From an uncultured Sangeribacter sp. (lineage in GTDB: Bacteria > Bacteroidota > Bacteroidia > Bacteroidales > Muribaculaceae), in contig CAZDWB010000006.1 of the NCBI GenBank assembly GCA_964509225.1, forward strand, positions 4,979 to 68,978: DNA of 64,000 nt, in the 5' to 3' direction. The notes beneath the pieces were generated by a model. It was not told where the DNA came from, did not search any database, and worked only from the letters and a program-made list of their open reading frames with translations. Numbering within the stretch: position 1 is the stretch's first letter; every line of letters starts with the position of its first letter. Of the stretch, positions 1,574-20,090 are shown one piece after another. Both the position numbers and the translations under genes were made by a program.

Positions 1574-1622
1574 CAATTTTATTGTAAAAGGCTATTTTTT
1601 AATACATTATATTAAAAAAACC

Positions 1623-2225
1623 ATGTATTCAAAGTTTAAGCGGTGCTTTGATTGCTTAGTGGCAATCATGGCACTAATTCTTTTATCTCCAATTTTACTT
1701 CTTACAGCTTTAGCAATAAAAATTGAGAGTCGAGGTCCGGTTATTTTTAAACAAGAAAGATTGGGAAAAAATGGAAAGGTCTTTAAAATATTAAAATTTC
1801 GTTCAATGGTGGTTGGTGCGGAAAAGACAGGGACCGGAGTTTACTCCTTTAAAGGTGACAATAGAATAACAAAAGTGGGAAAATTAATTCGTTCAACGAG
1901 TATTGACGAATTACCGCAACTTATAAATATTATAAAGGGAGAAATGGCTTTAATTGGACCTCGTCCTGCTCTTACATATCATCCTTGGACATTTGATAAG
2001 TATTCCCATCACCAAAAAAAGATGTTTGACGTCTTACCCGGAGTTACCGGTTGGGCTCAGATAAATGGAAGAAAAGAAGTCCCCTGGCCAGAACGAATTG
2101 AGCTAAACGCATGGTATGCTGAAAATTTTTCTTTCTCTTTAGATCTGAAAATTTTCTTTCTTACAATTTTTAAGGTTGTAACCAATGTCAATAACGAAAA
2201 CACCTCTAAAACCGGCAACAAATAA
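1623..2225 (+). CDS. Bacterial sugar transferase (priming undecaprenyl-phosphate glycosyl-1-phosphate transferase, WcaJ/PglC-like)
   Basis: KRCFD..., FKQERLGKNGKVFKILKFRSM, SIDELPQLINIIKGEMALIGPRP and PGVTGWAQINGR motifs. ATG at 1623 preferred over 1545. Confidence 0.92.
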   Translation: MYSKFKRCFDCLVAIMALILLSPILLLTALAIKIESRGPVIFKQERLGKNGKVFKILKFRSMVVGAEKTGTGVYSFKGDNRITKVGKLIRSTSIDELPQLINIIKGEMALIGPRPALTYHPWTFDKYSHHQKKMFDVLPGVTGWAQINGRKEVPWPERIELNAWYAENFSFSLDLKIFFLTIFKVVTNVNNENTSKTGNK

Positions 2226-2249
2226 CATCCTGTTTAATAATTTCTTTTT

Positions 2250-3095
2250 ATGCTTAACTTAATATATATCACCAATCAACCCAAAATTGCAAAAATAGCT
2301 GAAAGGGCAGGTGTTGATTGGATATTTGTTGATATGGAATGGATTGGCAAAAACAAACGCCAAGGAGGACTTGATACGGTTCAAAACCATCATACTTTTG
2401 AAGATATTAAGAAGATTAAGTCAGCAATATCAAGCGCTAAAGTTTTAGTTCGTGTAAACCCAATTCATGAGGAATTAAACGATTATCCCTCATCTGAAAA
2501 AGAGATTAAAAAAACTATTAAAGCCGGTGCCGATATAATAATGTTGCCTTTCTTCAAAACGCCTGAAGAAGTAAGCAGATTTATAAAATACGTTGACGGT
2601 AAGGCACGCACATTATTACTTGTAGAAACAAAGGAGGCAGTCGAAAATATTGATGAAATTTTATCATTTACCGGCATAGACGAAATTTATATCGGTTTAA
2701 ATGACTTACATCTATCCTATAACCTTGATTTCATGTTCCAGTTACTCGAAAATGGAACAGTTGATATGTTGGCAAAAAAATTTAAAGCCAAGGGGATACC
2801 TTTTGGTTTTGGTGGTATTGCCAAAATCGGAGGAGGTTTACTGCCGGCAGAACATATAATTGCAGAGCATTTTCGTTTAGGATCAACGCGGGGAATTTTA
2901 TCTCGTTCCTTTTGTGATTGTAATAAATTGAATGACCTTAATAATATTGCAACAATATTTGAAAATGGAGTTTCTGATATAAGAGTTCTGGAAGAAAATC
3001 TCTCCACGCAAAATGATAATTTTTTTGAGAAGAACCGCTGGTTTGTAAAAAAATCCGTCCAAAATATAGTAAATACTATTCGTTCAAAAAAATGA
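2250..3095 (+). CDS. HpcH/HpaI aldolase / citrate lyase-like protein
   Basis: WIFVDME, VLVRVNP, IMLPFFK, LLLVETKEA and YIGLNDLHLS motifs of the HpcH/HpaI TIM-barrel family. Confidence 0.8.
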   Translation: MLNLIYITNQPKIAKIAERAGVDWIFVDMEWIGKNKRQGGLDTVQNHHTFEDIKKIKSAISSAKVLVRVNPIHEELNDYPSSEKEIKKTIKAGADIIMLPFFKTPEEVSRFIKYVDGKARTLLLVETKEAVENIDEILSFTGIDEIYIGLNDLHLSYNLDFMFQLLENGTVDMLAKKFKAKGIPFGFGGIAKIGGGLLPAEHIIAEHFRLGSTRGILSRSFCDCNKLNDLNNIATIFENGVSDIRVLEENLSTQNDNFFEKNRWFVKKSVQNIVNTIRSKK

Positions 3096-3994
3096 ATATT
3101 CTCATTACAGGTGCTTTCAAATATACTCCATGTCAATTAAATCAAATTAAGGATCTTGGGGTCAAGGTGATAAATATGCCTATAGAAAGTGAAAATTTAC
3201 CCGTTAACCCTTTAGACGTTGAAGGAATTATTTGCAATGGTCTCTTTCTATATCATGATATATCTCAATTTTCGAACTTGAAATTTATTCAACTTACAAG
3301 TGCTGGTCTTGATAGAATTCCTCTTCAATATATATTAGACAATGAAATTAAACTCTATAACGCGAGGGGAGTTTATAGTAAACCTATGGCAGAATGGGTA
3401 TTAATGAGAATTCTTGAAAGGAATAAACATTCCGAACACTTTAATTCTGCACAAAAAGCTAATAGGTGGGAAAAGGATAGAGAACTAATCGAGCTCTCCG
3501 GCAAAAAGGCTGCCATCATAGGAGCTGGAAATGTTGGGCAAGAAATAGCCAAAAGATTATCTTCTTTTGATGTGAATATTACCGGTTATGATATTCACAA
3601 AAATAACATTCAGTTTTTTGATACTATTAAGCTAATCAAGGATTTCTTAAAAGAGGTAGAAATTTTTGATTATATCATTATCACAGCACCTTTAACTCCA
3701 GATACAAAAAACCTCATGAATATTTCTGTTTTAGAACGCATGAAAAAAGGCAGTATGCTTATAAATGTATCAAGAGGAGGAATACTAAATGAAGAGGATC
3801 TAATTAATCTCTTTTCTAAACGAAATGATCTTTATGCAGCTTTAGATGTCTTTGAAAAAGAACCTCTTCCGGAAGATTCCATATTGTGGCAAATGAATAA
3901 TATAAAGGTATCTCCTCATAATTCTTTTGTTGGGGAAGGTAATCAGCAGAGATTGTTTGAAGTTGTTCTATCAAACTTAAAGAAATCTATTTAA
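3092..3994 (+). CDS. D-isomer-specific 2-hydroxyacid dehydrogenase (NAD-binding)
   Basis: IIGAGNVG Rossmann motif, LINVSRGG, ALDVFEKEPL and SPH catalytic His. ATGA overlap with the aldolase. Confidence 0.88.
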   Translation: MNILITGAFKYTPCQLNQIKDLGVKVINMPIESENLPVNPLDVEGIICNGLFLYHDISQFSNLKFIQLTSAGLDRIPLQYILDNEIKLYNARGVYSKPMAEWVLMRILERNKHSEHFNSAQKANRWEKDRELIELSGKKAAIIGAGNVGQEIAKRLSSFDVNITGYDIHKNNIQFFDTIKLIKDFLKEVEIFDYIIITAPLTPDTKNLMNISVLERMKKGSMLINVSRGGILNEEDLINLFSKRNDLYAALDVFEKEPLPEDSILWQMNNIKVSPHNSFVGEGNQQRLFEVVLSNLKKSI

Positions 3995-4251
3995 ATAATA
4001 AAAACAAGCTGTATTGAAAACGACTCTTTGGTCTTCAATAAATAAAAAATGACGAACAATTTTATAAAAAATATAATTCCAAATTATAATTAATACTATA
4101 ACATACAAAATAATATAGAATCTTAAAAGAAGTAATGGTCAGAATTTCAAAAACATTCCAGATTAATGATTATTTGTCGAATTATAGAAGAATTTTTATA
4201 ACAATTAAAAAAATTCAAAATATTAAATTCAAATATTCTAAGCATTCTTCG

Positions 4252-5091
4252 ATGAAACAAATGTTTGGGAAAGATTTTATAAAGTATTCGTGGATTACAG
4301 TAGTAATTCTTATTTTTTTATGCTTTCTCCCTTTCCTTCTTACTCACCACGGACCAAAATTATTGGATTTTTCTCACACAGGAGAAATTGGTGATACTAT
4401 TGGGGGGACGATGAGTCCCTTTGTAGCAATTTTTGCAGCAATACTTACTTTCCTTGCTTTTTGGGTTCAATACAACGCTAACGAACAACAGCGACATGAC
4501 ATTGCCTTAGAAAGATTTGAAAGCAATCTTTTTCAATTAATATCGGTTCAAGAGGAAATCACCAATAATCTTACCTATTATTTATCTCAAAACAGCACCA
4601 CTAATGATATTCTGAAGGGAAGAAGGATTTTCGAATTTCTTTATCTGGAAAGAAGACTTGATTGGCAAAAAGGAATTCGAGGAAGTATCGAACATGAGGG
4701 AATCAAAGTAATAGAAAATGATAAATCATTAGGTTGTCTGGATCATTATTTCCGACATCTTTACAGGATATTTAAATATATTGATGATGAAAAAAAATTG
4801 GAACTTACAAAGAAAGAAAAATATGAGGATACATCTATAGTACGTTCGATGCTGTCTGAATATGAACTGCTCATCCTATTTTATAACTGTCTGGCTATTA
4901 ATAGTAACCATTCTTTCAAAGAATTAATTGAGGATTATGCAATTCTTAATAACATCCGGTGTGATCATTTAGCTCTTATAGAAGAACAAAACTATTATAA
5001 AGAGCTTTTGAAATCAGACTCATATATAGTTAAAAATTTACCTCCACAGAATCTTTACACAAAATCAGCATTTGTTTTTTCAGATAAATAA
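4252..5091 (+). CDS. Putative phage abortive infection protein (putAbiC-like) with N-terminal membrane segments
   Basis: GEIGDTIGG plus hydrophobic helices, ERFESNLFQLI, LDHYFRHLYRIFKYID and IVRSMLSEYELLILFYNCL, typical of the putAbiC family. Start 4252 preferred; the ORF is open from 4135. Confidence 0.75.
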   Translation: MKQMFGKDFIKYSWITVVILIFLCFLPFLLTHHGPKLLDFSHTGEIGDTIGGTMSPFVAIFAAILTFLAFWVQYNANEQQRHDIALERFESNLFQLISVQEEITNNLTYYLSQNSTTNDILKGRRIFEFLYLERRLDWQKGIRGSIEHEGIKVIENDKSLGCLDHYFRHLYRIFKYIDDEKKLELTKKEKYEDTSIVRSMLSEYELLILFYNCLAINSNHSFKELIEDYAILNNIRCDHLALIEEQNYYKELLKSDSYIVKNLPPQNLYTKSAFVFSDK

Positions 5092-5102: not shown

Positions 5103-7067
5103 ATGGACTCAAAAATATTAAAAATTGAACCTAAAGAAGCAACAGAAAATATTCCTTCAAAAGATAGAGAATCATATCAGACAATAGACTCTGATGAAAA
5201 AGTTGATGCTTATAGTGTAGTGGAGAATATTTATGCTCTTCGTTCAAATTTCTTGATTATTGGGCTTACTGGTAGAACCGGTAGTGGTTGCTCTACTGTG
5301 GCAGAAATTCTTTCTGAAAAAGAATTTTCAAAATACAAGTCTAACTATAAATCCTTTAATTCCGGGCAGATTACAAATCAAGTCCGTAAAGACAGAATTG
5401 TTCATAATTTTTTAGAAAAAAATTGGGTCCCATTTACAGTAATCAAGGTACGTGATCTTATTTACTATTTTGCATTTCAACTCTCTTTTGATGATTTCGT
5501 AGACGCAGTAATTAAAGGTTATCAAAAAGATAAAGACCTCGGCAATGGAGAAGGAGATAATGAAGAAAATACTGATTACTCTGACAGAATTAAAGAATGC
5601 CTTACCCAGTTTAACTATGACGATATTCACAAAAAAATAACTGAACTAAAAGAATTTTTTGATAAAAGAGGATATCGTGATACAGAAGAACCTGATGAAC
5701 TTATTAAATATACAGATATGATTTTTATGGACTTATCTGATTCCAAAAAAGATATTGAAGAAAAACTAAATAAAATTTCTAAATCAATACTTCCAAGAAT
5801 TCTACAAACCTGGGGAGATAATATTAGAACATATAAAAGTGTTGTAGTAGGTGAACGAGTCAAAGATGCACCCGAAGCGCTTGCCAGAGTTGTTAATCAA
5901 ACCATTAAACTTATTAGAACTATAAATGACCTTAAAAGAAAAAAATCGTCAGGAGATGAACAATTTCAAACCTGTATCGTAATTGATAGTCTTAGAAATC
6001 CTTTTGAAATTCTCTTTTTTAGAGAAAGATGGTCTTCTTTCTATTGTATGTCAATAAATACTACACGTGAAATAAGATATAGTAAACTTATGACATTCAA
6101 GAAATTATCATTAGACGATATTTATAATATCGATGAAAGAGAGAAAGAAAAAAAGAATGTAGGCAACTCTTTCAGTCAAATAGACATTGATAGATGTATT
6201 CAGCTGTCGGACATATTTGTTAATCACGATGGAACACCACATACCCGAAATTTCAATCTTATAAATCAATTACATACCTACATAGCACTAATGTTGCATC
6301 CTGGGTTAATCCCCCCATCTTCTCAGGAACGTCTAATGCAAGTTGCGTATACTGCTAAACTTAATTCCGGCTGTCTGTCTCGACAAGTTGGGGCAGCCAT
6401 TACTGATGAGGAATATTCTTTGAAAGGGATAGGGTGGAATTCTTCACCGTCCGGCACTGTTCCCTGTTCTTTAAGAAATATGGATGATCTTTATAATCAA
6501 GAGGATTTGAATGCTTTTAGTGAACATGAGATAAAAAATAAAGAATTCCAGGAAAGAATTTCATTAATCAGTAATAAAGCCTCGGAAGGATGGAAGAACT
6601 TTAAAAATCTGAATGGAATTGGATTATCATATTGTTTTAAAGATATTCATGGTGGTATTAATCCAAAGCAAAAGTATAATCAAGTCCATACTCGTAGTCT
6701 GCATGCTGAAGAGAATGCGTTTCTCCAAATTGCTAAATATGGTGGAATGGGAATAAAAGGTGGGAAGCTATTTACAACTGCAAGTTGTTGTGAGTTATGC
6801 GCAAAAAAAGCTTATCATTTAGGAATAAAGGAAATCTATTATATAGATTCATATCCTGGAATTTCCATGCCACACGTCTTAAGTGTTGGCTCTTTAAGTC
6901 AACGACCCAAAATGATACTATTCAGTGGTGCTGTAGGTAGAGCATACGTTAATCTCTTTAATCCATTTATGCCATTGAAGGATGAATTTGAAGCGAGAAC
7001 AGGAATAAATATGAAAGACGTGGAAGATAGTAAACATAAAGATTCAAAGACCTATTTAACAAAATAG
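5103..7067 (+). CDS. Anti-phage dCTP deaminase (Dcd/AvcD type: P-loop kinase + deoxycytidylate deaminase)
   Basis: N-terminal IIGLTGRTGSGCST P-loop and VIDSLRNPFE. C-terminal AKLNSGCLSRQVGA, HAEENA and CCELCAKK zinc-deaminase motifs. Confidence 0.88.
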   Translation: MDSKILKIEPKEATENIPSKDRESYQTIDSDEKVDAYSVVENIYALRSNFLIIGLTGRTGSGCSTVAEILSEKEFSKYKSNYKSFNSGQITNQVRKDRIVHNFLEKNWVPFTVIKVRDLIYYFAFQLSFDDFVDAVIKGYQKDKDLGNGEGDNEENTDYSDRIKECLTQFNYDDIHKKITELKEFFDKRGYRDTEEPDELIKYTDMIFMDLSDSKKDIEEKLNKISKSILPRILQTWGDNIRTYKSVVVGERVKDAPEALARVVNQTIKLIRTINDLKRKKSSGDEQFQTCIVIDSLRNPFEILFFRERWSSFYCMSINTTREIRYSKLMTFKKLSLDDIYNIDEREKEKKNVGNSFSQIDIDRCIQLSDIFVNHDGTPHTRNFNLINQLHTYIALMLHPGLIPPSSQERLMQVAYTAKLNSGCLSRQVGAAITDEEYSLKGIGWNSSPSGTVPCSLRNMDDLYNQEDLNAFSEHEIKNKEFQERISLISNKASEGWKNFKNLNGIGLSYCFKDIHGGINPKQKYNQVHTRSLHAEENAFLQIAKYGGMGIKGGKLFTTASCCELCAKKAYHLGIKEIYYIDSYPGISMPHVLSVGSLSQRPKMILFSGAVGRAYVNLFNPFMPLKDEFEARTGINMKDVEDSKHKDSKTYLTK

Positions 7068-7081
7068 TAAACAAAGAAAAG

Positions 7082-7459
7082 ATGGCTATTATAATAGAAA
7101 CTGATTACATTGATAGTATATATAATGGACTTATCGAAAAAATACATTCCGGTCAAATCAAGACATGGATTATTGATAATGATAAAGACATTACGATAGC
7201 TAATATGAGATGGAGAAATAAAGCTTGGTTTAAAATTAAAAAAAAACCGGAAAACAACCAGCTCTTATTCGGAATCATTCCTTCAAGAAGGAATGAAATG
7301 TCTAAAGCTCTGTATGGAATATTTCATGGAAGATTAATTTCTACACTTCTCGCCCATTTTGATGAAGAAATAGAAGATATCAGAGTCACACCGGGATTTT
7401 ATGTTGATATCGATTATATCCCCTCTGAACTATTAGAGGAAATTAATTCAAGTACTTAA
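7082..7459 (+). CDS. Small hypothetical protein (125 aa) co-oriented with the dCTP deaminase
   Basis: Starts 14 nt after the deaminase stop. Aromatic-rich motifs TWIIDND, WRNKAW and YGIFHGRLI...LLAHFD look family-like. Confidence 0.7.
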   Translation: MAIIIETDYIDSIYNGLIEKIHSGQIKTWIIDNDKDITIANMRWRNKAWFKIKKKPENNQLLFGIIPSRRNEMSKALYGIFHGRLISTLLAHFDEEIEDIRVTPGFYVDIDYIPSELLEEINSST

Positions 7460-10088: not shown

Positions 10089-10483
10089 GATACGACTTTG
10101 ACTCTTATAACTCCTTATTGTTGGTAGATAGGAATCTGAATAAGGATTTATTCCTGAAGCGTGTAGGAGCGGTCTCCGGTTACGCTGTAAAGCTTTTCTC
10201 GGATATTTATGATGCCATGTTTTCAGAGAGTATTGATTTGGAAAGGGTATACTATGAATACTATAAGGATGAATTCAGTTCCTTTGGGGATTATTTGAAA
10301 GAGGAATTTTCTCTACCTGATTCTATCCACAACAACATTATGAAAGACCTTAAAGAAAATGAACATCTGAAAGTTATCCTTTGGGAACAACTTTCCTATG
10401 GATTTAATGATATTGAATCTTTCATATTCGGTGAAAAAATGAGGGAGACATTTGAAAAAGTTTTAACAGGCAGGGAATCATGA
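10085..10483 (+). CDS. Hypothetical acidic/aromatic protein (~132 aa)
   Basis: ATGA overlap with the upstream STAND stop (10085-10088) and with the downstream start (10480-10483). No recognisable motif. Confidence 0.7.
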   Translation: MRYDFDSYNSLLLVDRNLNKDLFLKRVGAVSGYAVKLFSDIYDAMFSESIDLERVYYEYYKDEFSSFGDYLKEEFSLPDSIHNNIMKDLKENEHLKVILWEQLSYGFNDIESFIFGEKMRETFEKVLTGRES

Positions 10484-10899
10484 AGATTAAAACGGATTTT
10501 GTTACTAATAGTTCCTCTACATGTTATGTCGTCATGACCAAGGGGGAGTTTACACTTGAATCTTTCCTTAAGGCTTCAGGAATAGAGGAAACATCTCCGT
10601 TCCGTACTATGTTCGAAACGCTCTTCAATTCTCTCTCATCTTTTATTTCACCTTTGGAAACAGGTGTTAAAAAACATCGTTGGTATAAGGATAGATGTAC
10701 TTCAACTGAAGAATTTATAAAAGTTTATTTCTCAAATGAAACATGGGAAAGAATTCAAAAAGCCAGAAAAGAGGGGTTTGAAGTGTATATTGGAGAACTC
10801 TCCAGTGAAGAGAACGAAATAGAAACTTTTTTCTGCACTTCATCCTTTGTGATTGAATCGGATTCATTGATTATAGATGCTTCTTGTGATGGATGGTAG
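10480..10899 (+). CDS. Hypothetical protein with N-terminal MKIKTDFVTNSSS motif
   Basis: ORF track; distinctive N-terminal motif; overlaps the radical SAM gene start. Confidence 0.75.
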   Translation: MKIKTDFVTNSSSTCYVVMTKGEFTLESFLKASGIEETSPFRTMFETLFNSLSSFISPLETGVKKHRWYKDRCTSTEEFIKVYFSNETWERIQKARKEGFEVYIGELSSEENEIETFFCTSSFVIESDSLIIDASCDGW

Positions 10900-11932
10900 G
10901 ACTATTTTATTCAATCATACTTCTGAACACTACAGCACTATCTTCAATCAACGTAACGGTTTCTTTGCAAGAGTTGAAGATTATAACCATCCCGAACCAT
11001 CTTGGGCTGCAGACGGTCCTGAACTTTTAGATATTTCCATAACCAATTATTGCACACAAGGTTGCTCTTTCTGCTACCGCAATTCGAATCCGGATGGAGG
11101 GAATATGCCCCTCCATGATATGGAATTTATTTTGGAGCAGTGCATGGGTGACAGCAAAGTATATCAAATAGCATTGGGGGGAGGTAATCCCAATCAGCAT
11201 CCTGAATTCATAAAAATCCTGAAACTGATCCGTGAAGCGGATATAATTCCCACCTTCACATCAAACGGGTTCGGTCTCACTCAAGATATAATAAATGCCA
11301 CAGCAGAATATTGTGGGGCGATTGGAATAAGTGCATATCCTCCCTACGAGATTCTGAGTAAAAGAATCAATTTATTATTTGCGGCAGGAATCAGGGTCAA
11401 TCTCCACATAATTCTTTCAAGGGAAAATTTCAATCAGATAATTTCATGGCTTGAAAATCCACCAGGGTGGTTTAACTCTTTAAATGCAATTATTTTTCTC
11501 AATTATAAACCTATTCGTAAAGAAGAGGGGTATAACAATTTGACTGAAGATGAACTTAAAAAGTTTTTCTCTTTAATTGCAGAATCCGATGTAAAAATCG
11601 GTTTTGACAGTTGCTCAATATCGGGAGTACTAAAATGGCTCGCTACACCTTCATATTTCATTGAATCTTGTGAAGCCGCCAAATTTTCAGCATTTATCTC
11701 GGAGGACTTAAAGATGTATCCCTGTTCGTTCATGATAAACTCGGATTGGTATGGAAATCTACGGGAGATGAGTTTAATGGATATCTGGCATAATTCTCCC
11801 TATTTCCGGGAATTTAGAGATAACAGCCTTCCGGACAATTGCAAAGGGTGTGAAGTAAGGAATGAATGTAAGGGTGGATGTCATTTCATGCCGGAGATTA
11901 ATCTTTGTAAAAAGGGGGAGTCCCGAATTTGA
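10889..11932 (+). CDS. Radical SAM protein with C-terminal SPASM domain
   Basis: CTQGCSFC (CxxxCxxC), IALGGGNP, then CEAAKF...MYPCSF...GNL and CKGCEVRNECKGGC SPASM cysteines. Start 10889 (MDGR) or 10877. Confidence 0.88.
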   Translation: MDGRTILFNHTSEHYSTIFNQRNGFFARVEDYNHPEPSWAADGPELLDISITNYCTQGCSFCYRNSNPDGGNMPLHDMEFILEQCMGDSKVYQIALGGGNPNQHPEFIKILKLIREADIIPTFTSNGFGLTQDIINATAEYCGAIGISAYPPYEILSKRINLLFAAGIRVNLHIILSRENFNQIISWLENPPGWFNSLNAIIFLNYKPIRKEEGYNNLTEDELKKFFSLIAESDVKIGFDSCSISGVLKWLATPSYFIESCEAAKFSAFISEDLKMYPCSFMINSDWYGNLREMSLMDIWHNSPYFREFRDNSLPDNCKGCEVRNECKGGCHFMPEINLCKKGESRI

Positions 11933-11950
11933 ATTAATTCATAAATACCT

Positions 11951-12340
11951 ATGATTATTGATAATAGTTTACTTGATAAGGTTGAGGAGGAAGCGCGACG
12001 TTCTCCGCGGCTTCGAATGAACCGGAATATACATGAGTCGTTCGATGATAGGGTACAACAGATGATCAATGTCCTTATACCGGGAACTCTGATGCCGGTG
12101 CATCGTCATCTCCATTCATCCGAAACATTTATTCTTCTACGGGGAAAGATGTTTGTAATGTATTATGATGAACTTGGAAGGGAAGTGGAGAGGATTCTAC
12201 TTGATCCTCTGGCAGGGAACTATGGAGTAAATATTCCCAAGGGTCAGTGGCATGGAGTGGAAGTGATTGAAACGTCGGCTATTTTAGAGGTTAAAGAGGG
12301 TCCCTATACACCTCTTACTCCGGAAAATATACTTTATTGA
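11951..12340 (+). CDS. WbuC-family cupin-fold metalloprotein (polysaccharide locus)
   Basis: SPRLRMNRNIH, PVHRHLHSSET, IPKGQWHGV and EVKEGPY motifs. Confidence 0.85.
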   Translation: MIIDNSLLDKVEEEARRSPRLRMNRNIHESFDDRVQQMINVLIPGTLMPVHRHLHSSETFILLRGKMFVMYYDELGREVERILLDPLAGNYGVNIPKGQWHGVEVIETSAILEVKEGPYTPLTPENILY

Positions 12341-12341
12341 T

Positions 12342-13580
12342 ATGGAAAGAATTCTTCTTTGCAAACCCAAAATGAGTGGAAAGGAGCTTGATTTTATTAT
12401 TCCTGCTCTTGCTGAAGATTGGGCTGTCCCCTTGGGTCCGGATGTTACTGCGTTTGAAAGGGAACTGGGAAAAGTGGTTGGGTCTGATCACGTGGTTGCT
12501 CTCGAATCGGGAACTTCTGCAATTCATCTTGCGCTGATTTTATGTGGTGTTAAACCGGGCGATGAGGTGATAGTTCAGTCCATGACTTTTTGCGCTTCCA
12601 CAAATCCTGTGGCTTATCTTGGAGCGACACCGGTATTTGTAGATTCTGAAGGGGAGTCCTGGAATATGGATCCTCAACTTCTTGAAACTGCCATTAAGGA
12701 TCGTATCAGGAAAACGGGTAAAAAGCCGAAGGCTATCATCCCTGTGGCTCTATACGGGATGCCATATCAGATTGAACGCATACTGGAAATTGCCAATCGC
12801 TATGATATCCCTGTGATTGAGGATGCTGCTGAGGGATTCTGTTCAAAATATAACGGTAAGATTTTGGGGACATTCGGTCGATTCGGTGTGCTGTCTTTTA
12901 ATGGTAACAAGATGATCACTACTTCGGGAGGTGGCGCACTGATATGTCCGGATAAAGAGACTGCCGAAAAGGCAAAGTGGTATGCTACGCAAGCTCGTGA
13001 AGGGTATCCTTATTATCAACATGAGGAAGTGGGATATAATTATCGCCTGTCTAATATTTCCGCGTGTATAGGGAGGGCACAACTTTTAGTGCTTGAGGAT
13101 TATCTTGCACATCATAAACGGGTTCAGACCCTTTATTGTGAACTGCTTAAGGATGTAGACGGGCTAAAAATGCACAAAAATCCCTCGACTCTCTTTGATT
13201 CCAATTTCTGGCTTTGCACTGCCACACTTGACCCAAACCTTAAAATACGTGGTGAGGAAGATGTTTACAAAAGCGTTATTAAAGGTGCGGTTGGAGGTGC
13301 TACAGGAGTAGTCCATGCCGCGACTTCTGCCAGGACCACATGCCAGCCAAATGATAATGTAGAGGCATTAAGAGTATTTCTCGATAAGGCTAACATTGAG
13401 GCAAGACCTTTATGGAAACCTATGCATCGTCAGCCGGTGTTTGCCGATTGTCCGGCATACGTGAACGGAGTGAGCGAGCAGCTGTTTGAACAGGGGATAT
13501 GCTTGCCTGCCGGTCCGTATGTGACAGACGACCATGTTCACTATATCGTAGCGAACATAAAGAAGGCATTAGCTGAATAA
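12342..13580 (+). CDS. DegT/DnrJ/EryC1/StrS family sugar aminotransferase
   Basis: SGTSAIHLAL, IEDAAEG, SFNGNKMITTSGGGAL (PLP lysine), GYNYRLSN and RPLWKPMH motifs. Confidence 0.92.
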   Translation: MERILLCKPKMSGKELDFIIPALAEDWAVPLGPDVTAFERELGKVVGSDHVVALESGTSAIHLALILCGVKPGDEVIVQSMTFCASTNPVAYLGATPVFVDSEGESWNMDPQLLETAIKDRIRKTGKKPKAIIPVALYGMPYQIERILEIANRYDIPVIEDAAEGFCSKYNGKILGTFGRFGVLSFNGNKMITTSGGGALICPDKETAEKAKWYATQAREGYPYYQHEEVGYNYRLSNISACIGRAQLLVLEDYLAHHKRVQTLYCELLKDVDGLKMHKNPSTLFDSNFWLCTATLDPNLKIRGEEDVYKSVIKGAVGGATGVVHAATSARTTCQPNDNVEALRVFLDKANIEARPLWKPMHRQPVFADCPAYVNGVSEQLFEQGICLPAGPYVTDDHVHYIVANIKKALAE

Positions 13581-13613
13581 GCCTAACCTCCAAAAACTTG
13601 AAAATTTTTAAAA

Positions 13614-15617
13614 TTAACTTTTTATAAGGTCCAGAAATTCCTCCTCGGTCAGAATGGGAATTCCAAGAGACTCGCATTTTTCGCGCTTCGCGGGTCCCAT
13701 ATTCTCACCCGCCAGAACGAAGTCGGTCTTTTTGGAAATACTACCCGAATTCTTACCCCCTTCTCTCTCAATAATCTCTTTATATTCATCTCGCGAGTGA
13801 TGACTGAAAGTGCCGGAAATGACTATGGTTTTTCCGGCTAATTTATTTCCTTTAGGCATCATCTTATCTGCCGACAGCTGCATCTGGACACCGGCAGCTG
13901 TAAGGCGCTCGATATTTTCTACGTTTATAGGCTCACGAAGGAAGTCGAAGATGCATCTGGCGATTATAGGACCTAAATCGGGAATGGCTGTAAGCTCCTC
14001 AACACTCATTTCGCGCATTCGATCCATACTTTGCACTGCATTTGCCAATCTTTTGGCTGTAGTTTCACCTACATTGGGTATGGAAAGCGCATAAACCACC
14101 CTTTCAAAGGGTATTTTTTTTGATTCCTCTATCCCTTTTAAAATTCTTTTGGCTGTTTTTTCTCCTATTCTATCAAGTCCTGAAAGTTTTTCCTCTGTTA
14201 AATCGTAAAGGTCTCCGATACGGCTCACCATTCCACAGGCGAATAGCAATTCTGCGGTTTCCTCTCCGATACCATCTATATTCATCATCCTGCGGGCGCA
14301 AAAATGCTCAATCTTGCCGGTGATTTGTGGACGACAACCGTAATGGTTCGGGCAACACCAGGCTGCTTCTCCAAAGATTCTTTCAAGGGGTGTTCCACAT
14401 TCCGGACATGCAGTGACAAACTGAATCGCACTTGCTTCCGGTTGGCGACGCGAGGTGTCAACTCCGGTAATCTTGGGAATAATTTCCCCTCCTTTTTCCA
14501 CATACAGCCAGTCACCCTCATGAATATCAAGTTCTTTGATGATATCATCATTATGTAGTGATGCCCTTTTAACTATTGTCCCTGAAAGCTGGACCGGTTC
14601 GAGATTTGCTACCGGAGTTACAATCCCCATACGACCGGTTTCAAAAGACACGAAACGCAGACGGGTACATGCATTTTCGGGATTAAATTTAAAAGCGACA
14701 GCCCAACGGGGAGATTTTGCAGTGTATCCCAAATTTAATTGTTGTCGCAGGGAATTTACCTTAAACACCAACCCATCAGTTGCAACAGGCAGATTCTTCC
14801 TTTCTGACTCCCAATACTTTATAAATTCATTAATCTCGGCAAGAGTACTTATCAGCCTCATCTCTTTCGACACCTTGAAACCCCACTGACGCGCTTTCTG
14901 CATATTCTCATAGTGAGAATCTGAGGGTAGTTCATCAGCGAGAAGATAATAAAAACGTGCATCAAGGCGTCGACGGGCCACTTCCCGAGGGTCCTGGGTT
15001 TTCAATGTTCCCGAAGCAGCGTTACGCGGATTGGCGAAGAGGGGTTCTTCATTAAAGGCTCGCTCTGCGTTAAGTTTTTCGAACACTTCCCAGGGCATCA
15101 GGATTTCTCCCCTTATTTCAAACTTATCAGGCCAATCTCCGGGTTGAAGCACCAGTGGGATGCTGCGGATAGTCTTGACATTGGCTGTCACATCATCTCC
15201 CTGTGTTCCATCGCCTCGTGTCACTGCTCTGATTAATCTTCCTTGCTCGTAAGTCAGAGAGATGGAGGTGCCGTCAAATTTCATCTCTCCGCAAACTTCA
15301 AATTTCTCCCCGCTCAATGCCTTATTTACTCTTTCAAACCACTCATCAACTTCTTCGATAGAGTAGGTATTGGAAAGAGACATCATGGGACGGGCATGAA
15401 CAACATGCTCAAAACCCTTACTTAGATCGGAGCCTACCCGTTGAGTCGGTGACAAGGGATCAAACATTTCCGGATGCTCCTTCTCAAGCTCCTCAAGGCG
15501 TTTGAGCATCATATCGAATTCCTTATCCGGTATTTCCGGTGAATTCAACACATAATAATTATGATTATGACGATTCAATTCATCGCGTAAATGTCTGATC
15601 TCTTCTATGTGATTCAT
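13614..15617 (-). CDS. ligA: NAD-dependent DNA ligase
   Basis: EMKFDG adenylation motif, [13 protein letters not shown] zinc finger, HhH repeats and a C-terminal BRCT domain. Confidence 0.97.
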
Positions 15618-15629
15618 GATACCTCTTTC

Positions 15630-16397
15630 TTAATATTTTACACTCCAAAGATATAACGCCTGTGGGGGTACGGATTGTCCGGCGGAACACCGATTTTTAT
15701 CATCTATGATTCTCCGGAACTCTTCAATTGTGAGTTTTCCACGTCCTACATCGATTAATGTTCCAACTACAGCTCTTACCATATTACGCAGAAAACGGTC
15801 GGCAGTAATGGTGAAGACCAGGAAACGACCTCCCTCTTCTCCCGGGACGGATAGGTTCATATCCTGATATTCCCATACGGCATCTGTTACATTGCAGATA
15901 TTGGTTTTAGTATCTGCATGTAATTTAGCAAAAGATGTGAAGTCTTCAACATTGAGAAGAATCCCGGCTGCCTTATTCATAGCCCCCACATCGAGTCTGG
16001 TATATAATTGCCAGGAGAGGGGATAAAGGAACGGATTCTTTGAAAAGGAAATGAAATATTTGTATGTACGGCTTTTTGCGGAGAAACGCGCATGCCATTC
16101 CGGGTCAACCTCCTCAATAGCATGAACAGCGATATCCTTTCCTACTAAACGGTTAAGGGAAACCAAAATTGATTCAGGGAGAGGTATAGGAGAATCGAAA
16201 TGAGCGTACATCTCCCGTGCGTTCACACCGGTATCTGTGCGTCCGGCACCGGTAATCGGGATGTGTCTGCGTAATATTGTTTGCAACGCATCCTCTATAT
16301 TGCCTTGCACGCTTACTGCATTCGGCTGAATCTGCCATCCATGAAACGGCGCACCATTATATGAAAGATGCATCCTATATCTCCGCAATTCATCCAT
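15630..16397 (-). CDS. truA: tRNA pseudouridine(38-40) synthase
   Basis: YNGAPFHGWQIQP, GAGRTDTGVNA, HARFSAKSRTY and FLRNMVRAVVG motifs. Confidence 0.96.
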   Translation of the reverse strand: MDELRRYRMHLSYNGAPFHGWQIQPNAVSVQGNIEDALQTILRRHIPITGAGRTDTGVNAREMYAHFDSPIPLPESILVSLNRLVGKDIAVHAIEEVDPEWHARFSAKSRTYKYFISFSKNPFLYPLSWQLYTRLDVGAMNKAAGILLNVEDFTSFAKLHADTKTNICNVTDAVWEYQDMNLSVPGEEGGRFLVFTITADRFLRNMVRAVVGTLIDVGRGKLTIEEFRRIIDDKNRCSAGQSVPPQALYLWSVKY

Positions 16398-16400
16398 AAT

Positions 16401-18305
16401 TCAATCCCGCTCAAGATAAGTAATTCCGTACAAGCCTGAACGATAGTTATTTAGGAATTGACGTCCCTCTTCTGCAGTGATTACTCCGCTTTTAAGTGAG
16501 CGTGAAACCCATGCTTCAAGATTACGCACCAGCTTTTTAGGATTATATTCCACATAATCGAGAACATCAGCTACAGGCTCACCATCAATAATCTGCTCTA
16601 TCTCATAACTTTTCTTATCCTTGGAAAGGACAATATGCACAGCATTGGTATCACCAAAGAGATTATGAAGGTCTCCAAGAATCTCCTGATAGGCACCTAC
16701 CAGAAATACTGCGAGGTAATAATGTTCGCCATTCTTCAGTGCATGCACCGGGAGGGAGTTGCTCGTTCCTAAAGGGGATACAAACCTATTGATTTTTCCG
16801 TCAGAGTCGCAAGTCACATCCTGGATGGTGCAATGTCTGGTTGGCTTCTCATCAAGTCGGGAGATTGGTGTAATGGGAAACATCTGGTCAATGGCCCAGG
16901 AATCCGGCAGAGACTGAAACAAGGAGAAGTTACAGAAATATTTCTCCGGCAACATTTTTGAAACCTTGCGAAGTTCTTCCGGTGGATGCTTCATGCTCTG
17001 TGTCAGGGAATGGACATCACGTGCCACAGACCAGAAAAGTTTTTCTATCTGAGCACGGGTTGTAAGGTCGAGCATACCAAGGCTGAAAAGTTCAAGGGCC
17101 TCTTCCCGAATTTGAAGTGCATCGTGCCAATCCTCGAAAACAGTAGCCGGATTTATACGATCCCAAATCTTATATAGCTCTCTTGCGAGTTCATGAGCAT
17201 CATCCCCCAATTCTTCGTTATCACGCCAGATTGGAAGACCGGTTGTCTCCAACACTTCTATCACCAATACTGAATGATGCGCTGTTAGTGAGCGACCGCT
17301 TTCAGTAATAATGTTCGGTTGTGTCAGATTCTTTTTCTGGCATACATCCACCAATGCATATACGGCATCATTTACATATTCCTGTATTGAATAGTTCATG
17401 GAATTTTCACCGTATGCGGAACGTGTACCGTCATAGTCGACACCTAATCCTCCACCTACATCTACAAAATCTATTGCAAAGCCCATTTGCGAGAGTTGAG
17501 CGTAAAATTGCATGGCCTCTCTCAATGCATTCTTGATTCTGCGGATTTTTGTCACCTGGCTCCCTATGTGGAAATGTATAAGACGTAGAGATTCAGTCAT
17601 GTTATGATCCCTCAAGAAATCAAGCGCTGTCAGCAATTCACTTGAATTTAATCCGAATTTGCTGACATCTCCTCCCGATTCCTCCCATTTACCGCTACCT
17701 GAAGATGACAACTTTATCCGAATTCCGATGTTGGGAACGATTTTAAGTCGACGTGACACTTCGGCAATGAGTTTCAACTCATTCAATTTTTCAACAACGA
17801 GGAATATCCTTCGTCCCATCTTATGAGCCAACAGAGCTAACTCTATATAATCTTCATCCTTGTATCCGTTGCAAATGATGAGTGAATTCTCGTATGTATT
17901 GACCGCCAACACTGCGTGCAGCTCAGGTTTTGAGCCGGCTTCCAATCCGATGTTATATTTATTCCCATGACTTACAATTTCCTCAACGACCTGACGCATC
18001 TGGTTTACCTTAATAGGGTAGACCACAAAACTTTGACCAGAATAGTTATACTCTTCCGCTGCCCGTTTGAAACAATTTGACATTTCGCGGATACGGTCGT
18101 CAAGAATATCGGGGAAGCGTAACAAAAGCGGTGCACAGACATCGCGAACCTTAAGTTCATCCATCAACTCTTTAAGGTCGACAGCACAAGCATCCTCACC
18201 CGGGGTCACCTGCATGTGACCCTTATCATTAATTGAAAAATATTTCAGACCCCATCCGGGAACATTATAAAGTTCGGAGGAATCCTCAATACGCCATTTT
18301 CTCAT
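16401..18305 (-). CDS. speA: Biosynthetic arginine decarboxylase
   Basis: MRKWRIEDSSELY, YPIKVNQ (PLP lysine), GLEAGSKPEL, HFHIGSQ and DVTCDSDG motifs. Confidence 0.96.
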   Translation of the reverse strand: MRKWRIEDSSELYNVPGWGLKYFSINDKGHMQVTPGEDACAVDLKELMDELKVRDVCAPLLLRFPDILDDRIREMSNCFKRAAEEYNYSGQSFVVYPIKVNQMRQVVEEIVSHGNKYNIGLEAGSKPELHAVLAVNTYENSLIICNGYKDEDYIELALLAHKMGRRIFLVVEKLNELKLIAEVSRRLKIVPNIGIRIKLSSSGSGKWEESGGDVSKFGLNSSELLTALDFLRDHNMTESLRLIHFHIGSQVTKIRRIKNALREAMQFYAQLSQMGFAIDFVDVGGGLGVDYDGTRSAYGENSMNYSIQEYVNDAVYALVDVCQKKNLTQPNIITESGRSLTAHHSVLVIEVLETTGLPIWRDNEELGDDAHELARELYKIWDRINPATVFEDWHDALQIREEALELFSLGMLDLTTRAQIEKLFWSVARDVHSLTQSMKHPPEELRKVSKMLPEKYFCNFSLFQSLPDSWAIDQMFPITPISRLDEKPTRHCTIQDVTCDSDGKINRFVSPLGTSNSLPVHALKNGEHYYLAVFLVGAYQEILGDLHNLFGDTNAVHIVLSKDKKSYEIEQIIDGEPVADVLDYVEYNPKKLVRNLEAWVSRSLKSGVITAEEGRQFLNNYRSGLYGITYLERD

Positions 18306-18323
18306 TTCCTTATAATTTCTGTT

Positions 18324-18647
18324 CTATTCCTTTCTTCCAAGAATCTCAAATCGCTCTACAAATATTTCTGCAATACGCCGGTTTATATGAAACTTGTCTT
18401 CATATTCCCGGTATTTCAGTTTCCCCTCTGCATACAGTCGGGTTCCCTTTCTAATGTAACGCTCTGCCATAGATGCATTCCTATCGAAACAGATTAGTCG
18501 ATGCCACTCTGTAGTCTCAACTCCGGCTGAGCCTTGACGTTCGCTTGTAGCAAGTGAAAATCTTGCTATAGCTCTATCCTTTTCCGGATATGACAGTTCA
18601 GGATCTTGTCCGACATATCCCAATAATATGACTTTATTAACTGACAT
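18324..18647 (-). CDS. ssb: Single-stranded DNA-binding protein (short, no acidic tail)
   Basis: SVNKVILLGYVGQDPE, FSLATSE, TEWH and KGTRLYAEGKL OB-fold motifs; ends ILGRKE. Confidence 0.88.
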   Translation of the reverse strand: MSVNKVILLGYVGQDPELSYPEKDRAIARFSLATSERQGSAGVETTEWHRLICFDRNASMAERYIRKGTRLYAEGKLKYREYEDKFHINRRIAEIFVERFEILGRKE

Positions 18648-18660
18648 TTTTTCTTTTTAA

Positions 18661-19572
18661 TTAAATGGCAGGCAGATATAGACCGGTTTTCTCATGAAGA
18701 CCGTTGAGCAGATTCATTACGTGTATGGCATCTCCAACTCCTCCACGCATTGTTGCATCTGCCACAATTTCCACACTTATCTTCCCTTCGGAAGGGGAAC
18801 TGACATAAAGGATACAGCGGTTAGTACCCTCAACTTCTCGTGTATCGACCGGATTATCCGTCAGGAATGTGAAATTATGATCGTCATAAATCCCCTCAAA
18901 GATATCCTTGATATCACCAACGGTCATTGATGTAGGAAAGGTCATTGTAATCCTCATTCCACGTGCAGATTCACCCTTTATAGCTGCATTCACACGAATC
19001 TCACCTTCAAAGCTTGTCTGGATGTTGCCCAGTACACGCTTTATCTGGCGCACTGAATCGTCAAGCTCCTGTGTTTCCACTGCGAATCCCGGAGAAGTTA
19101 CCGACATATCTATATAATCTGAAAGCAACAGGTGCAGTGCAAGCGGACCCAAAGCTACAAGAGCTGCAGAGGCTACCGGCAGGGGGATATATGCTCTTGT
19201 TGCCCCTCGCACTAAGGATTTACGATTAACTTCAGACAATCCAAATTCGTACAGACTTTTACCCTCAACATCCACCTCGCCTTGTTCTGCCGGATGACGC
19301 ATTGTCAAATCGATGACTTTAATATCCTCAGGCAACTCCGGAAGGGGGAGAGGGCTTAAAACAAACAGAACATTTATCTTCTCGAAGTCAATGTGATCGG
19401 TGAACATCAGATCAGTTTCACCTATCATTCCATAATGAACGGCTGAGATACGTTTTCCCCGCTCGTCCGGTGCCATAAGGCTGACAATATCAACTTCCGG
19501 ATGTGTCAGAAGCAAGCGGATGAGATGTCCACCTTGTGGCTCGTCTGCACCTATTATTCCAACTCTTAACAT
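18661..19572 (-). CDS. ArgC (N-acetyl-gamma-glutamyl-phosphate reductase) homolog with eroded catalytic motifs
   Basis: Overall ArgC layout (LIRLLLTHPEV, VIDL, FGLSEVNR, VEGTNRC, AIHVMNLL...GL) and position after argR. The PGC catalytic motif and GYTA are absent. Confidence 0.75.
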   Translation of the reverse strand: MLRVGIIGADEPQGGHLIRLLLTHPEVDIVSLMAPDERGKRISAVHYGMIGETDLMFTDHIDFEKINVLFVLSPLPLPELPEDIKVIDLTMRHPAEQGEVDVEGKSLYEFGLSEVNRKSLVRGATRAYIPLPVASAALVALGPLALHLLLSDYIDMSVTSPGFAVETQELDDSVRQIKRVLGNIQTSFEGEIRVNAAIKGESARGMRITMTFPTSMTVGDIKDIFEGIYDDHNFTFLTDNPVDTREVEGTNRCILYVSSPSEGKISVEIVADATMRGGVGDAIHVMNLLNGLHEKTGLYLPAI

Positions 19573-20090
19573 TACTTAAAATATATTTCGTTCACTCCAA
19601 GGAGATGCTTGAATAATTCACAAGCCTCTTTGCGTGTTACATCTTCACGCAAAACGGCAAACACAGTATTGGCACCGGGAATGGTACCCAAAATTTCAGA
19701 ACATTTACTAAAATCTATATCGTGAGCAAGTCCGGGAGCATACCCGTTTCGAGTCTTTATGACAACCATGTTTCGTGAAAAGGATATGGAGATGATACCG
19801 TTTCTCTGTGCCGGTGTCATTTTCTTTTCTACAGTCTGAAGACTACTTTCTTGAAGTTCATCACTATCCGGGAGGACAAACATGTAGGTGCCTCTCTCTG
19901 TCGGCGTCTTGGTAACACGCAACATTTTAAGATCGCGTGAAAGAGTTGCCTGGGTCACAAAATAACCTCTTTCGGCAAGTAACCGAAGCAATTCCTCCTG
20001 ACTTCCTATCGGTTGATTCTGAATAAGGTCGATAACCTCACTTATACGCCTTTTGCGGTTTTTCATTTCTAATTTTATATTGATTTCCAT
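19572..20090 (-). CDS. argR: Arginine repressor
   Basis: IGSQEELL and VTQATLSRDLK winged-helix motifs; C-terminal LGTIPGANTVF oligomerisation domain (D replaced in the GTIAGDDT motif). Confidence 0.9.
   Translation of the reverse strand: MEINIKLEMKNRKRRISEVIDLIQNQPIGSQEELLRLLAERGYFVTQATLSRDLKMLRVTKTPTERGTYMFVLPDSDELQESSLQTVEKKMTPAQRNGIISISFSRNMVVIKTRNGYAPGLAHDIDFSKCSEILGTIPGANTVFAVLREDVTRKEACELFKHLLGVNEIYFK

Follow-up and report, generated by a model that had tools for sequence, protein, structure and literature searches.

Judged by gene content and operon layout, the closest studied analog of the genes considered here is the KpAvs2-Avap1-Avap2 operon of Klebsiella pneumoniae, in which an Avs2 sensor is encoded together with Avap1, a radical S-adenosylmethionine (radical SAM) protein, and Avap2, which is small and DUF6375-like (Nat Commun 2024, PMC11564622). 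The operon was shown experimentally to act against phages by abortive infection. Avap1 was needed against phage T2 and not against SECphi18, and viperin-type products were not found. Avap2 bound constitutively to the helical linker between the effector and the NTPase of KpAvs2 and could not be deleted, and the roles of both accessory proteins were left open (PMC11564622). We analyzed a 64,000-nt stretch of contig CAZDWB010000006.1 (positions 4,979 to 68,978) from an uncultured Sangeribacter sp. of the Muribaculaceae, hereafter the window. Here, a 139-aa protein with a sharply conserved 16-residue N-terminal segment (the tag) is encoded beside a radical SAM/SPASM enzyme, in a cassette that also encodes a signal transduction ATPase with numerous domains (STAND) and a tag-less paralog of the tagged protein. 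Like the KpAvs2 operon, this cassette combines an Avs2-like STAND bearing an N-terminal effector with a radical SAM gene and a small accessory, and it occurs in defense islands. In contrast to the three-gene KpAvs2 operon, whose STAND has the long C-terminal sensor with which Avs2 recognizes phage terminase, the window cassette has two paralogous small genes, one of them tagged, and an 841-aa STAND with a short C-terminus in which that sensor is lacking. The KpAvs2 paper makes no mention of an N-terminal NSSS tag (PMC11564622).

The best sequence and fold relatives of the radical SAM enzyme are the radical SAM/SPASM maturases of peptides that are ribosomally synthesized and then post-translationally modified (RiPPs), as in the enzyme/precursor pairs SuiB/SuiA (streptide), CteB/CteA (sactipeptide), PqqE/PqqA, and MftC/MftA. 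Such pairs resemble the tag system in having a conserved recognition segment, a variable remainder and, sometimes, several precursor genes per enzyme. RiPP precursors are, however, short leader-core peptides, whereas the tagged proteins are folded; the tag lies at the very N-terminal end and varies far less than a RiPP leader does; and RiPP clusters carry a leader protease, an exporter, or a RiPP recognition element (RRE), whereas the cassette, whose flanks differ between loci, has no leader protease or exporter. Pairs of a radical SAM/SPASM enzyme and a protein that it modifies are known in kind, as are STAND sensors that have a radical SAM accessory; the tag family and the cassette are previously undescribed. 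On the evidence below, we lean toward the view that the tag is the site that the radical SAM enzyme recognizes and modifies, the product serving as an accessory of the Avs2-like STAND.

The tagged protein opens with MKIKTDFVTNSSSTCYVV and closes with ...IDASCDGW, and its stop codon falls inside ATGGATGGTAG, which also holds the start codon of the radical SAM gene, giving an 11-nt overlap. The original prediction had singled out the sharp N-terminal motif, the terminal ASCDGW, and the overlap with the radical SAM gene, and a direct reading of the DNA confirms all three. Homologs of the 139-aa protein form 199 clusters in a word-indexed search; an exhaustive profile search, clustered at 50% identity, gives 570. 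Scanning one genome per species gave 80 cellular loci with 88 tagged proteins, distributed over Bacteroidota, Bacillota, Desulfobacterota, Nitrospirota, Chloroflexota, Omnitrophota, Planctomycetota, Verrucomicrobiota, Campylobacterota, Ignavibacteria, and Spirochaetia, and, among the archaea, Methanosarcina and Methanoregula. The logo of these 88 proteins reads M-K-[IVL]-[KR]-x-D-F-V-T-N-S-S-S-T-[S/C/N]-F. Met1 and each residue of the N-S-S-S-T block at positions 10 to 14 are present in 88/88; Lys2, Asp6, Phe7, and Val8 in 87/88 each; and Thr9 and Phe16 in 84/88 each. Position 3 is Ile, Val, or Leu, position 4 is Lys or Arg, and position 5 is variable. The Cys of the window's NSSSTC, which the original prediction included in a possible modification or self-processing site, is not a family feature; it is a minority residue at position 15 (Ser in 69, Cys in 13, and Asn in 6 of the 88).

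Beyond the tag, identity among the cellular homologs is only about 30%. Residues kept there in 33 diverse cellular homologs are F29, G34, G105, L107, S109, C119, and W139. Cys119 (window positions 10834-10836) is invariant in 33/33, and the C-terminal residue of the cellular tagged proteins is always Trp or, in loci without a STAND, Tyr; either Cys119 or the terminal Trp/Tyr could be a cross-link partner or a contact for the tag. Across 198 distinct tags, Ser11 to Ser13 are encoded by all six Ser codons, drawn from both codon families. The Ser codons therefore vary freely, and selection acts on the peptide and not on a DNA or other nucleic-acid signal. The constancy of the motif far exceeds what chance would produce.

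An AlphaFold2 (AF2) model of the tagged protein (mean predicted local distance difference test score [pLDDT] 87.4; predicted template modeling score [pTM] 0.82) shows a confident alpha/beta domain over residues 12 to 139. Residues 1 to 11 have pLDDT below 50 and are not packed onto this domain, as expected for an invariant segment that is shaped by an outside partner. Foldseek assigned no known fold to the model, with best E values of 0.39 in the PDB and 0.51 in BFVD, and the protein falls in no Pfam, NCBIfam, PADLOC, or PHROG family; none of these libraries assigns the tag family a function. A match to UPF0738 in Pfam (E 0.0045; 17 bits against a cutoff of 27) was rejected as noise, being reproduced by no other member. 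Literature searches found no description of the tag or of the four-gene cassette, and, as the original prediction supposed, neither the tagged protein nor the radical SAM enzyme has a described function in family libraries or in the literature. Taken by their sequences, the tagged proteins are a large, previously undescribed family that spans bacteria, archaea, and phages.

The genomic company of the tag is also nearly constant. We searched the ORFs (open reading frames) of every locus with the window proteins and counted presence within the fetched flanks. Both the STAND and the radical SAM enzyme were present in 67 of the 80 cellular loci, and the radical SAM enzyme without a STAND in 6; a STAND without the radical SAM gene was found in 4, all of them cut by a contig end, and neither gene in 3, one of them so cut. 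The radical SAM subfamily is thus present in the flanks of 73/80 loci, and most of the exceptions are cut contigs. Together with the phage data below, this count bears out the statement in the original prediction that MKI[KR]xxFVxNSSS proteins recur with such radical SAM enzymes in bacteria and phages. STAND-less bacterial loci carry two to four tandem tagged paralogs followed by one radical SAM gene; over all contexts, one radical SAM enzyme accompanies one to eight tagged proteins. In a Desulfobacterota metagenome-assembled genome (MAG) from termite gut (L083, 4099-7196), four tandem tagged paralogs (MKIR[HQ]DFVTNSSSTSF...) precede one radical SAM/SPASM gene with no STAND, an arrangement that resembles a multiprecursor RiPP cluster. 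The tagged protein and the radical SAM enzyme are clearly a functional pair.

In cells, this pair usually belongs to a larger unit. The gene order STAND, tag-less paralog, tagged protein, radical SAM enzyme recurs across phyla in 67/80 cellular loci, and STAND orthologs lie directly upstream in 71/80. The original prediction of an uncharacterized pair co-opted into a defense locus understated the link, since the pair is integral to a four-gene cassette in these 67 loci. In the window STAND, residues 54 to 136 match Pfam CAP12-PCTIR_TIR (5e-7) and residues 296 to 665, in the NTPase, match the PADLOC Avs2 model (1.3e-25); the NCBIfam Avs2 model scores 75.9 bits against a cutoff of 1000. The Avs2 models span 1375 to 1576 positions, of which only about 336 to 710 are matched, and the protein ends at residue 841, roughly half of the Avs2 length. 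Partner STANDs in other loci are 730 to 1077 aa long, and their N-terminal domain is a lipase-like alpha/beta hydrolase, a trypsin-like protease, DUF4062, or SMEK, or none is detected; SMEK is a nuclease domain also present in the partners of short Argonautes (PMC10810196). A constant core on which effectors are swapped in this way is what Avs/NLR-like immune sensors typically show, and the window STAND is likely the sensor and effector of the cassette.

Between the STAND and the tagged protein lies a gene whose product aligns colinearly with the 139-aa protein by BLASTP (E 0.007) and with the tagged family by hhalign (probability 93.9%; E 1.5e-7; 111 columns), by which measure it is a tagged-protein paralog from which the tag has been lost. 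An ORF of 125 to 142 aa fills this slot in the STAND-containing loci examined. The paralog is missing from STAND-less bacterial loci and from phage loci; it is present only beside a STAND.

Orthologous cassettes adjoin restriction-modification or BREX-like, AbiE, HipA, and reverse-transcriptase genes and are also found inside mobile elements. The conjugative pAt plasmid of Agrobacterium tumefaciens Ach5 (L195, 20854-25306) carries the same cassette with a SMEK nuclease-STAND, as do Klebsiella aerogenes (L196, in an AlpA/AcaB-type integrative element) and Proteus mirabilis (L198). The Ach5 pair of tagged protein and radical SAM enzyme has the accessions WP_051489734 and WP_038496256. Further homologs come from Vibrio vulnificus, Aeromonas, Shewanella, and Photobacterium, and in one locus (L199) the STAND gene is broken into two ORFs. 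The defense islands, mobile elements, and shuffling of effectors are suggestive of an antiphage defense role for the cassette.

The enzyme itself has the features of a radical SAM/SPASM protein, namely a CX3CX2C motif in a partial TIM barrel and a C-terminal SPASM domain with seven Cys residues for two auxiliary clusters. It matches Pfam Radical_SAM (8e-13) and SPASM (6.7e-10; residues 265-326) as well as TIGR04085 (1.4e-9; residues 265-338), and C59, C63, and C66 and the SPASM Cys columns are invariant in 62 homologs (alignment A7). Homologs at E<=1e-20 form 1139 clusters. The enzyme also matches phrog_7293 at 4.6e-30. Its NCBIfam matches are maturases of peptides or cofactors (WgkB, MftC, NirJ, ScmE, KxxxW, PqqE, and others), every one scoring far under its family cutoff, and its sole sequence relatives of solved structure are SuiB (1.4e-10) and PqqE. 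Foldseek with the AF2 model (pLDDT 87.4; pTM 0.88) returned SuiB as the best match (8.7e-16; template modeling [TM] score 0.73), followed by CteB, PqqE, SkfB, anSME, and TigE. Ranks 1 to 19 are all peptide or protein maturases; BtrN, at rank 20, is the first small-molecule enzyme, and viperins come after all of the peptide maturases. That the closest relatives in sequence and modeled fold all modify peptides or proteins would fit an enzyme-substrate relationship with the tagged protein. A family-specific N-terminal extension of about 50 residues is modeled as a three-stranded sheet (residues 5-30) and contains a conserved, family-specific Y..FN..TG motif that the phage enzymes also have. In some Bacteroidales orthologs (P0306 and P0324; L008, 6395-7981), an extra C-terminal domain of about 175 aa brings the total length to 524 to 528 aa.

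Other described radical SAM systems share some features. anSME and QhpD (with QhpC) are radical SAM-SPASM systems that act on whole proteins, and they show that Ser or Cys of a full-length protein can be a target of SPASM enzymes. By structure, anSME is one of the nearest neighbors of the window enzyme (E ~1e-10; TM score 0.63-0.65), and oxidation of a Ser Cbeta, as carried out by anSME, is a chemically plausible fate for the N-S-S-S turn. The anSME target (C/S)-x-(P/A)-x-R is, however, not found in the tag (DFVTNSSST, with no Pro or Arg), nor is a QhpD target motif, the tagged protein has no sulfatase match in Pfam, and the anSME model is not among the 25 best NCBIfam matches listed for the enzyme. 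In the VMAP/AP-ATPase ternary conflict systems, which center on an NTPase, a radical SAM-SPASM enzyme is predicted to modify a small genome-encoded FxSxx peptide (Kaur, Burroughs, Iyer, Aravind, eLife 2020, PMC7159879); those systems have a C-terminal FxSxx motif, a peptidase-released peptide, and vWA-MoxR components (PMC7159879), none of which is found in the window cassette. Prokaryotic viperins (pVips) are, like the window enzyme, radical SAM enzymes of defense islands, but the window enzyme differs from them in having a SPASM domain. A pVip identity was rejected, as the PADLOC pVip match (2e-11) covers only the radical SAM core, residues 53 to 152, and does not take in the C-terminal NTP-binding region, and the NCBIfam viperin score is 34.5 against a cutoff of 180.

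Phages provide a second setting for the same pair. In viral contigs of the IMG/VR collection, the tag is present on 77 distinct small ORFs of 88 to 230 aa, with up to eight per 12 kb. The alignment of these 77 with the two tagged proteins of phage GAP161 (79 sequences) has only four invariant columns, M1, N10, S11, and S12; elsewhere mean identity is 13%, and the C-terminal parts are unrelated to each other. No Pfam domain was detected in any of the 79, and the tag is thus their only common feature. With the phage radical SAM enzyme as the query, 78 new loci were found in IMG/VR. In 39 of these 78, the distance from the radical SAM stop codon to the start of a strictly tagged gene is between a few and a few hundred bases, and in 7 more a tagged gene with a GTG or TTG start lies directly past that stop codon; the strict tag pattern occurs 54 times in the 78 loci versus 0 times in shuffled sequence. 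Several viral contigs were returned by both the tag search and the radical SAM search, with the two genes 40 kb apart.

A search of 50,697 cultured-phage records found the radical SAM gene in 173; the exact tag MKIRSGFVSNSSSSSFIV likewise occurs in 173 records, from the same genera, namely phages of Klebsiella, Enterobacter, Cronobacter, Citrobacter, and Escherichia in the RB16/RB43 and KP15/KP27 groups. Phages with the tag include T4-like phages (RB16/RB43 pseudo-T-even and Klebsiella KP15/KP27-like) and jumbo phages. The phage families of the tagged protein and of the radical SAM enzyme, phrog_7397 and phrog_7293, are both annotated "unknown function" in PHROGs. Metagenomic phage radical SAM enzymes (L090, L103, L106, L110, and L113; alignment A5) end in ...CPxGL without the CX2CX5CX3C half of SPASM. 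From this ending, they probably hold one auxiliary cluster and are twitch-like, and they may catalyze simpler chemistry than the cellular enzymes.

If the tag is the substrate, the KIKTDFV strand would dock on the three-stranded sheet that precedes the radical SAM core, and the N-S-S-S-T turn would enter the active site, where the 5'-deoxyadenosyl radical would abstract a hydrogen from a carbon of Ser, Thr, or Asn. Candidate products are an aldehyde formed by oxidation, as in anSME, an epimer, or a C-C or C-O cross-link. A Cys thioether within the tag was considered and discarded as the general chemistry: position 15 is mostly Ser, and of the 79 phage tagged proteins, 8 have no Cys at all and 10 none outside the tag, so a thioether cannot be the general reaction. 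Within the cellular subfamily, an intramolecular cross-link could still involve the invariant C119. The modified protein, together with the tag-less paralog, would then form an accessory or regulatory subunit of the Avs2-like STAND, a role comparable to those of Avap1 and Avap2, which are experimentally required and unexplained, for KpAvs2. Upon phage infection, the STAND would oligomerize, and its TIR-like domain would kill or arrest the cell.

Several observations weigh against recognition and modification of the tag by the radical SAM enzyme. The invariance of the tag, far above that of typical RiPP leaders, would also fit a catalytic or ligand-binding motif. No RRE/PqqD domain was detected in the radical SAM enzyme by a Pfam scan, and PF19902/DUF6375, the family to which HHpred assigns Avap2, gave no match in 50 tagged and tag-less members (HMMER, E<=1). 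The cultured phages in which the two genes co-occur belong to one related clade and do not count as phylogenetically independent cases, although their co-occurrence agrees with the independent metagenomic and cellular data. In phage GAP161, about 20 kb separates the radical SAM gene GAP161_155 from the tagged genes GAP161_106 and _111, and two loci from termite-gut MAGs (L068 and L069) have orphan tagged genes with no radical SAM gene within 6 kb; the distance in T4-like phages and these orphans mean that adjacency is not obligatory. In the MAG that holds L069, another contig (L071) carries a tagged gene with a radical SAM gene, and the presence of the latter on a separate contig suggests that the enzyme can act in trans.

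We also weighed readings in which the tag is not modified. In one, which we regard as unlikely, the tagged protein is a nonsubstrate partner of the radical SAM enzyme, be it an adaptor, an activator, or a substrate-presenting subunit, and the tag is a docking handle only. The true substrate would then be the STAND, a phage protein, a nucleic acid, or a small molecule, and the variable C-termini of the phage proteins would recruit the enzyme to its targets. The same co-occurrence data apply to this arrangement, and variable C-termini on a constant handle suit target-recruiting adaptors. The constitutive binding of Avap2 to KpAvs2 and the need for Avap1 against some phages only fit an accessory complex, and a folded 139-aa domain is unlike a RiPP precursor. 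A mere handle, however, rarely needs 14 invariant residues with a polar N-S-S-S-T turn. The closest structural relatives of the radical SAM enzyme bind their peptide substrates directly, and no alternative substrate candidate is kept across the phage, STAND-less, and STAND-linked contexts.

The near-absolute invariance of the tag, typical of active-site or ligand loops, raises the alternative that it is an intrinsic phosphate-, metal-, or ligand-binding beta-hairpin turn, with the radical SAM enzyme making a cofactor or small molecule that the Ser hydroxyls bind or to which they become attached. An Asp followed by N-S-S-S-T after a beta-strand does resemble phosphate- or metal-binding loops, and some SPASM/twitch enzymes, such as BtrN, act on small molecules. 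We nevertheless consider this improbable: the phage members have no common fold past the tag, with 13% identity and no shared domain, and 16 residues by themselves would hardly make up a binding site; AF2 leaves residues 1 to 11 unpacked against the domain, and the best relatives of the enzyme are peptide maturases, not small-molecule enzymes. Least probable, by a narrow margin, is a tag that acts independently of the radical SAM enzyme, by the self-processing that the original prediction also raised (Asn-Ser cleavage or an N-O acyl shift, as Asn-Ser junctions can self-cleave in inteins and related proteins) or as a packaging, secretion, or degradation signal with an indirect radical SAM link, for it is not hydrophobic like a signal peptide, it leaves the tight cross-kingdom link to one radical SAM subfamily unexplained, and the analogy that a constant N-terminal tag on variable cargo offers to the capsid-targeting sequences of T4 internal proteins was rejected, given equal invariance of the tag in bacterial and archaeal nonphage cassettes, which have no capsid, and the absence from the tag of any Glu for the T4 prohead protease to cut at.

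The layout of the cassette in the window is given in Table 1. The ATG at 10889, which yields a radical SAM protein of 347 aa, is the start in the public gene call P0270; an alternative ATG farther upstream, at 10877, yields 351 aa and a 23-nt overlap with the tagged gene. The ATG of the tagged gene overlaps the stop codon of the paralog gene by 4 nt (ATGA), and the paralog gene overlaps the 3' end of the STAND gene by 10 nt. Because successive genes overlap throughout, the unit comprises four genes rather than two, and the pair is coupled in translation to the tag-less paralog and the STAND.

Table 1. Genes of the cassette and conserved elements within them, in window coordinates
Feature	Position	Strand	Basis and remarks
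STAND NTPase with N-terminal TIR-like domain, 841 aa	7563..10088	+	First cassette gene; Pfam, PADLOC, and NCBIfam matches
Tag-less paralog of the tagged protein, 134 aa	10079..10483	+	BLASTP, hhalign
Tagged protein, 139 aa: N-terminal tag, then compact alpha/beta domain ending in Trp	10480..10899	+	Sequence, AF2
Tag, codons 1-16, MKIKTDFVTNSSSTCY	10480..10527	+	Logo of 88 cellular homologs
Radical SAM/SPASM enzyme, 347 or 351 aa	10889..11932	+	Pfam; last cassette gene
CX3CX2C motif, C59/C63/C66 (351-aa numbering), binds the radical SAM [4Fe-4S] cluster	11051..11074	+	Direct read
SPASM domain with seven auxiliary-cluster Cys: C..GX4..PC, CX2CX5CX3C, then C	11669..11890	+	Pfam, TIGR04085

The cassette closes a region of distinct base composition. 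G+C content is 30 to 39% from window position 1 to about 12,000 and 44 to 45% in the housekeeping genes that follow (12000-20000), and the radical SAM gene is the final gene before the switch, which suggests a horizontally acquired island. The first housekeeping gene past the island encodes a WbuC cupin, as identified by library matches, and later ORFs resemble a DegT-type aminotransferase, ligA, truA, and speA, named from their translations alone. Upstream in the island are an antiphage dCTP deaminase of 654 aa (5103-7067; PADLOC dCTPase 4.8e-124; NCBIfam score 366 bits, slightly below the cutoff of 400) and an AbiP-like protein of 318 aa (4135-5091; 7.3e-11). Library scans of the PADLOC/NCBIfam type gave no assignment for the ORFs at 44-3994 or for a 125-aa ORF at 7082-7459. 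A scan for promoters and terminators was uninformative, with fewer sites than in shuffled sequence, and a search for evidence of transcription found no public run that contains the stretch.

A broader proposal, more daring and in our estimate unlikely, would join the cellular and phage observations. The radical SAM enzyme would place a new kind of mark on the invariant N-terminal tag of dozens of unrelated folded proteins; phages would use this mark to arm or target hypervariable small early proteins, and in bacteria and archaea the pair would have been built into an NLR-like STAND sensor, with an immune switch that is set by whether the host's own tagged protein is modified. That state may report SAM supply, radical SAM activity, or competition from phage tags. 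On this proposal, a single arms race would have produced both the phage tag family and the Avap-type accessories that accompany Avs2 systems.

The cassette is present in tractable organisms, namely A. tumefaciens Ach5 (on its pAt plasmid), Klebsiella aerogenes, and Proteus mirabilis. It has no DNA match in 5,426 complete Escherichia coli genomes in either the near or the distant search mode, and E. coli should therefore be a clean heterologous host. A tag that is the substrate of the radical SAM enzyme could yield a genetically encodable tag-enzyme pair for site-specific protein modification. It would be a protein-level analog of RiPP maturation, in which many different folded proteins carry a portable 16-residue N-terminal tag that a single enzyme recognizes, with a reach that extends over more than ten bacterial phyla, methanogenic archaea, and well-known groups of cultured phages. 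If true, this would give PHROG families 7293 and 7397, along with hundreds of early phage proteins listed as "hypothetical", their first function. To the question that the KpAvs2 study left open, why a radical SAM accessory is needed by some Avs2-type sensors, it would offer a concrete hypothesis.

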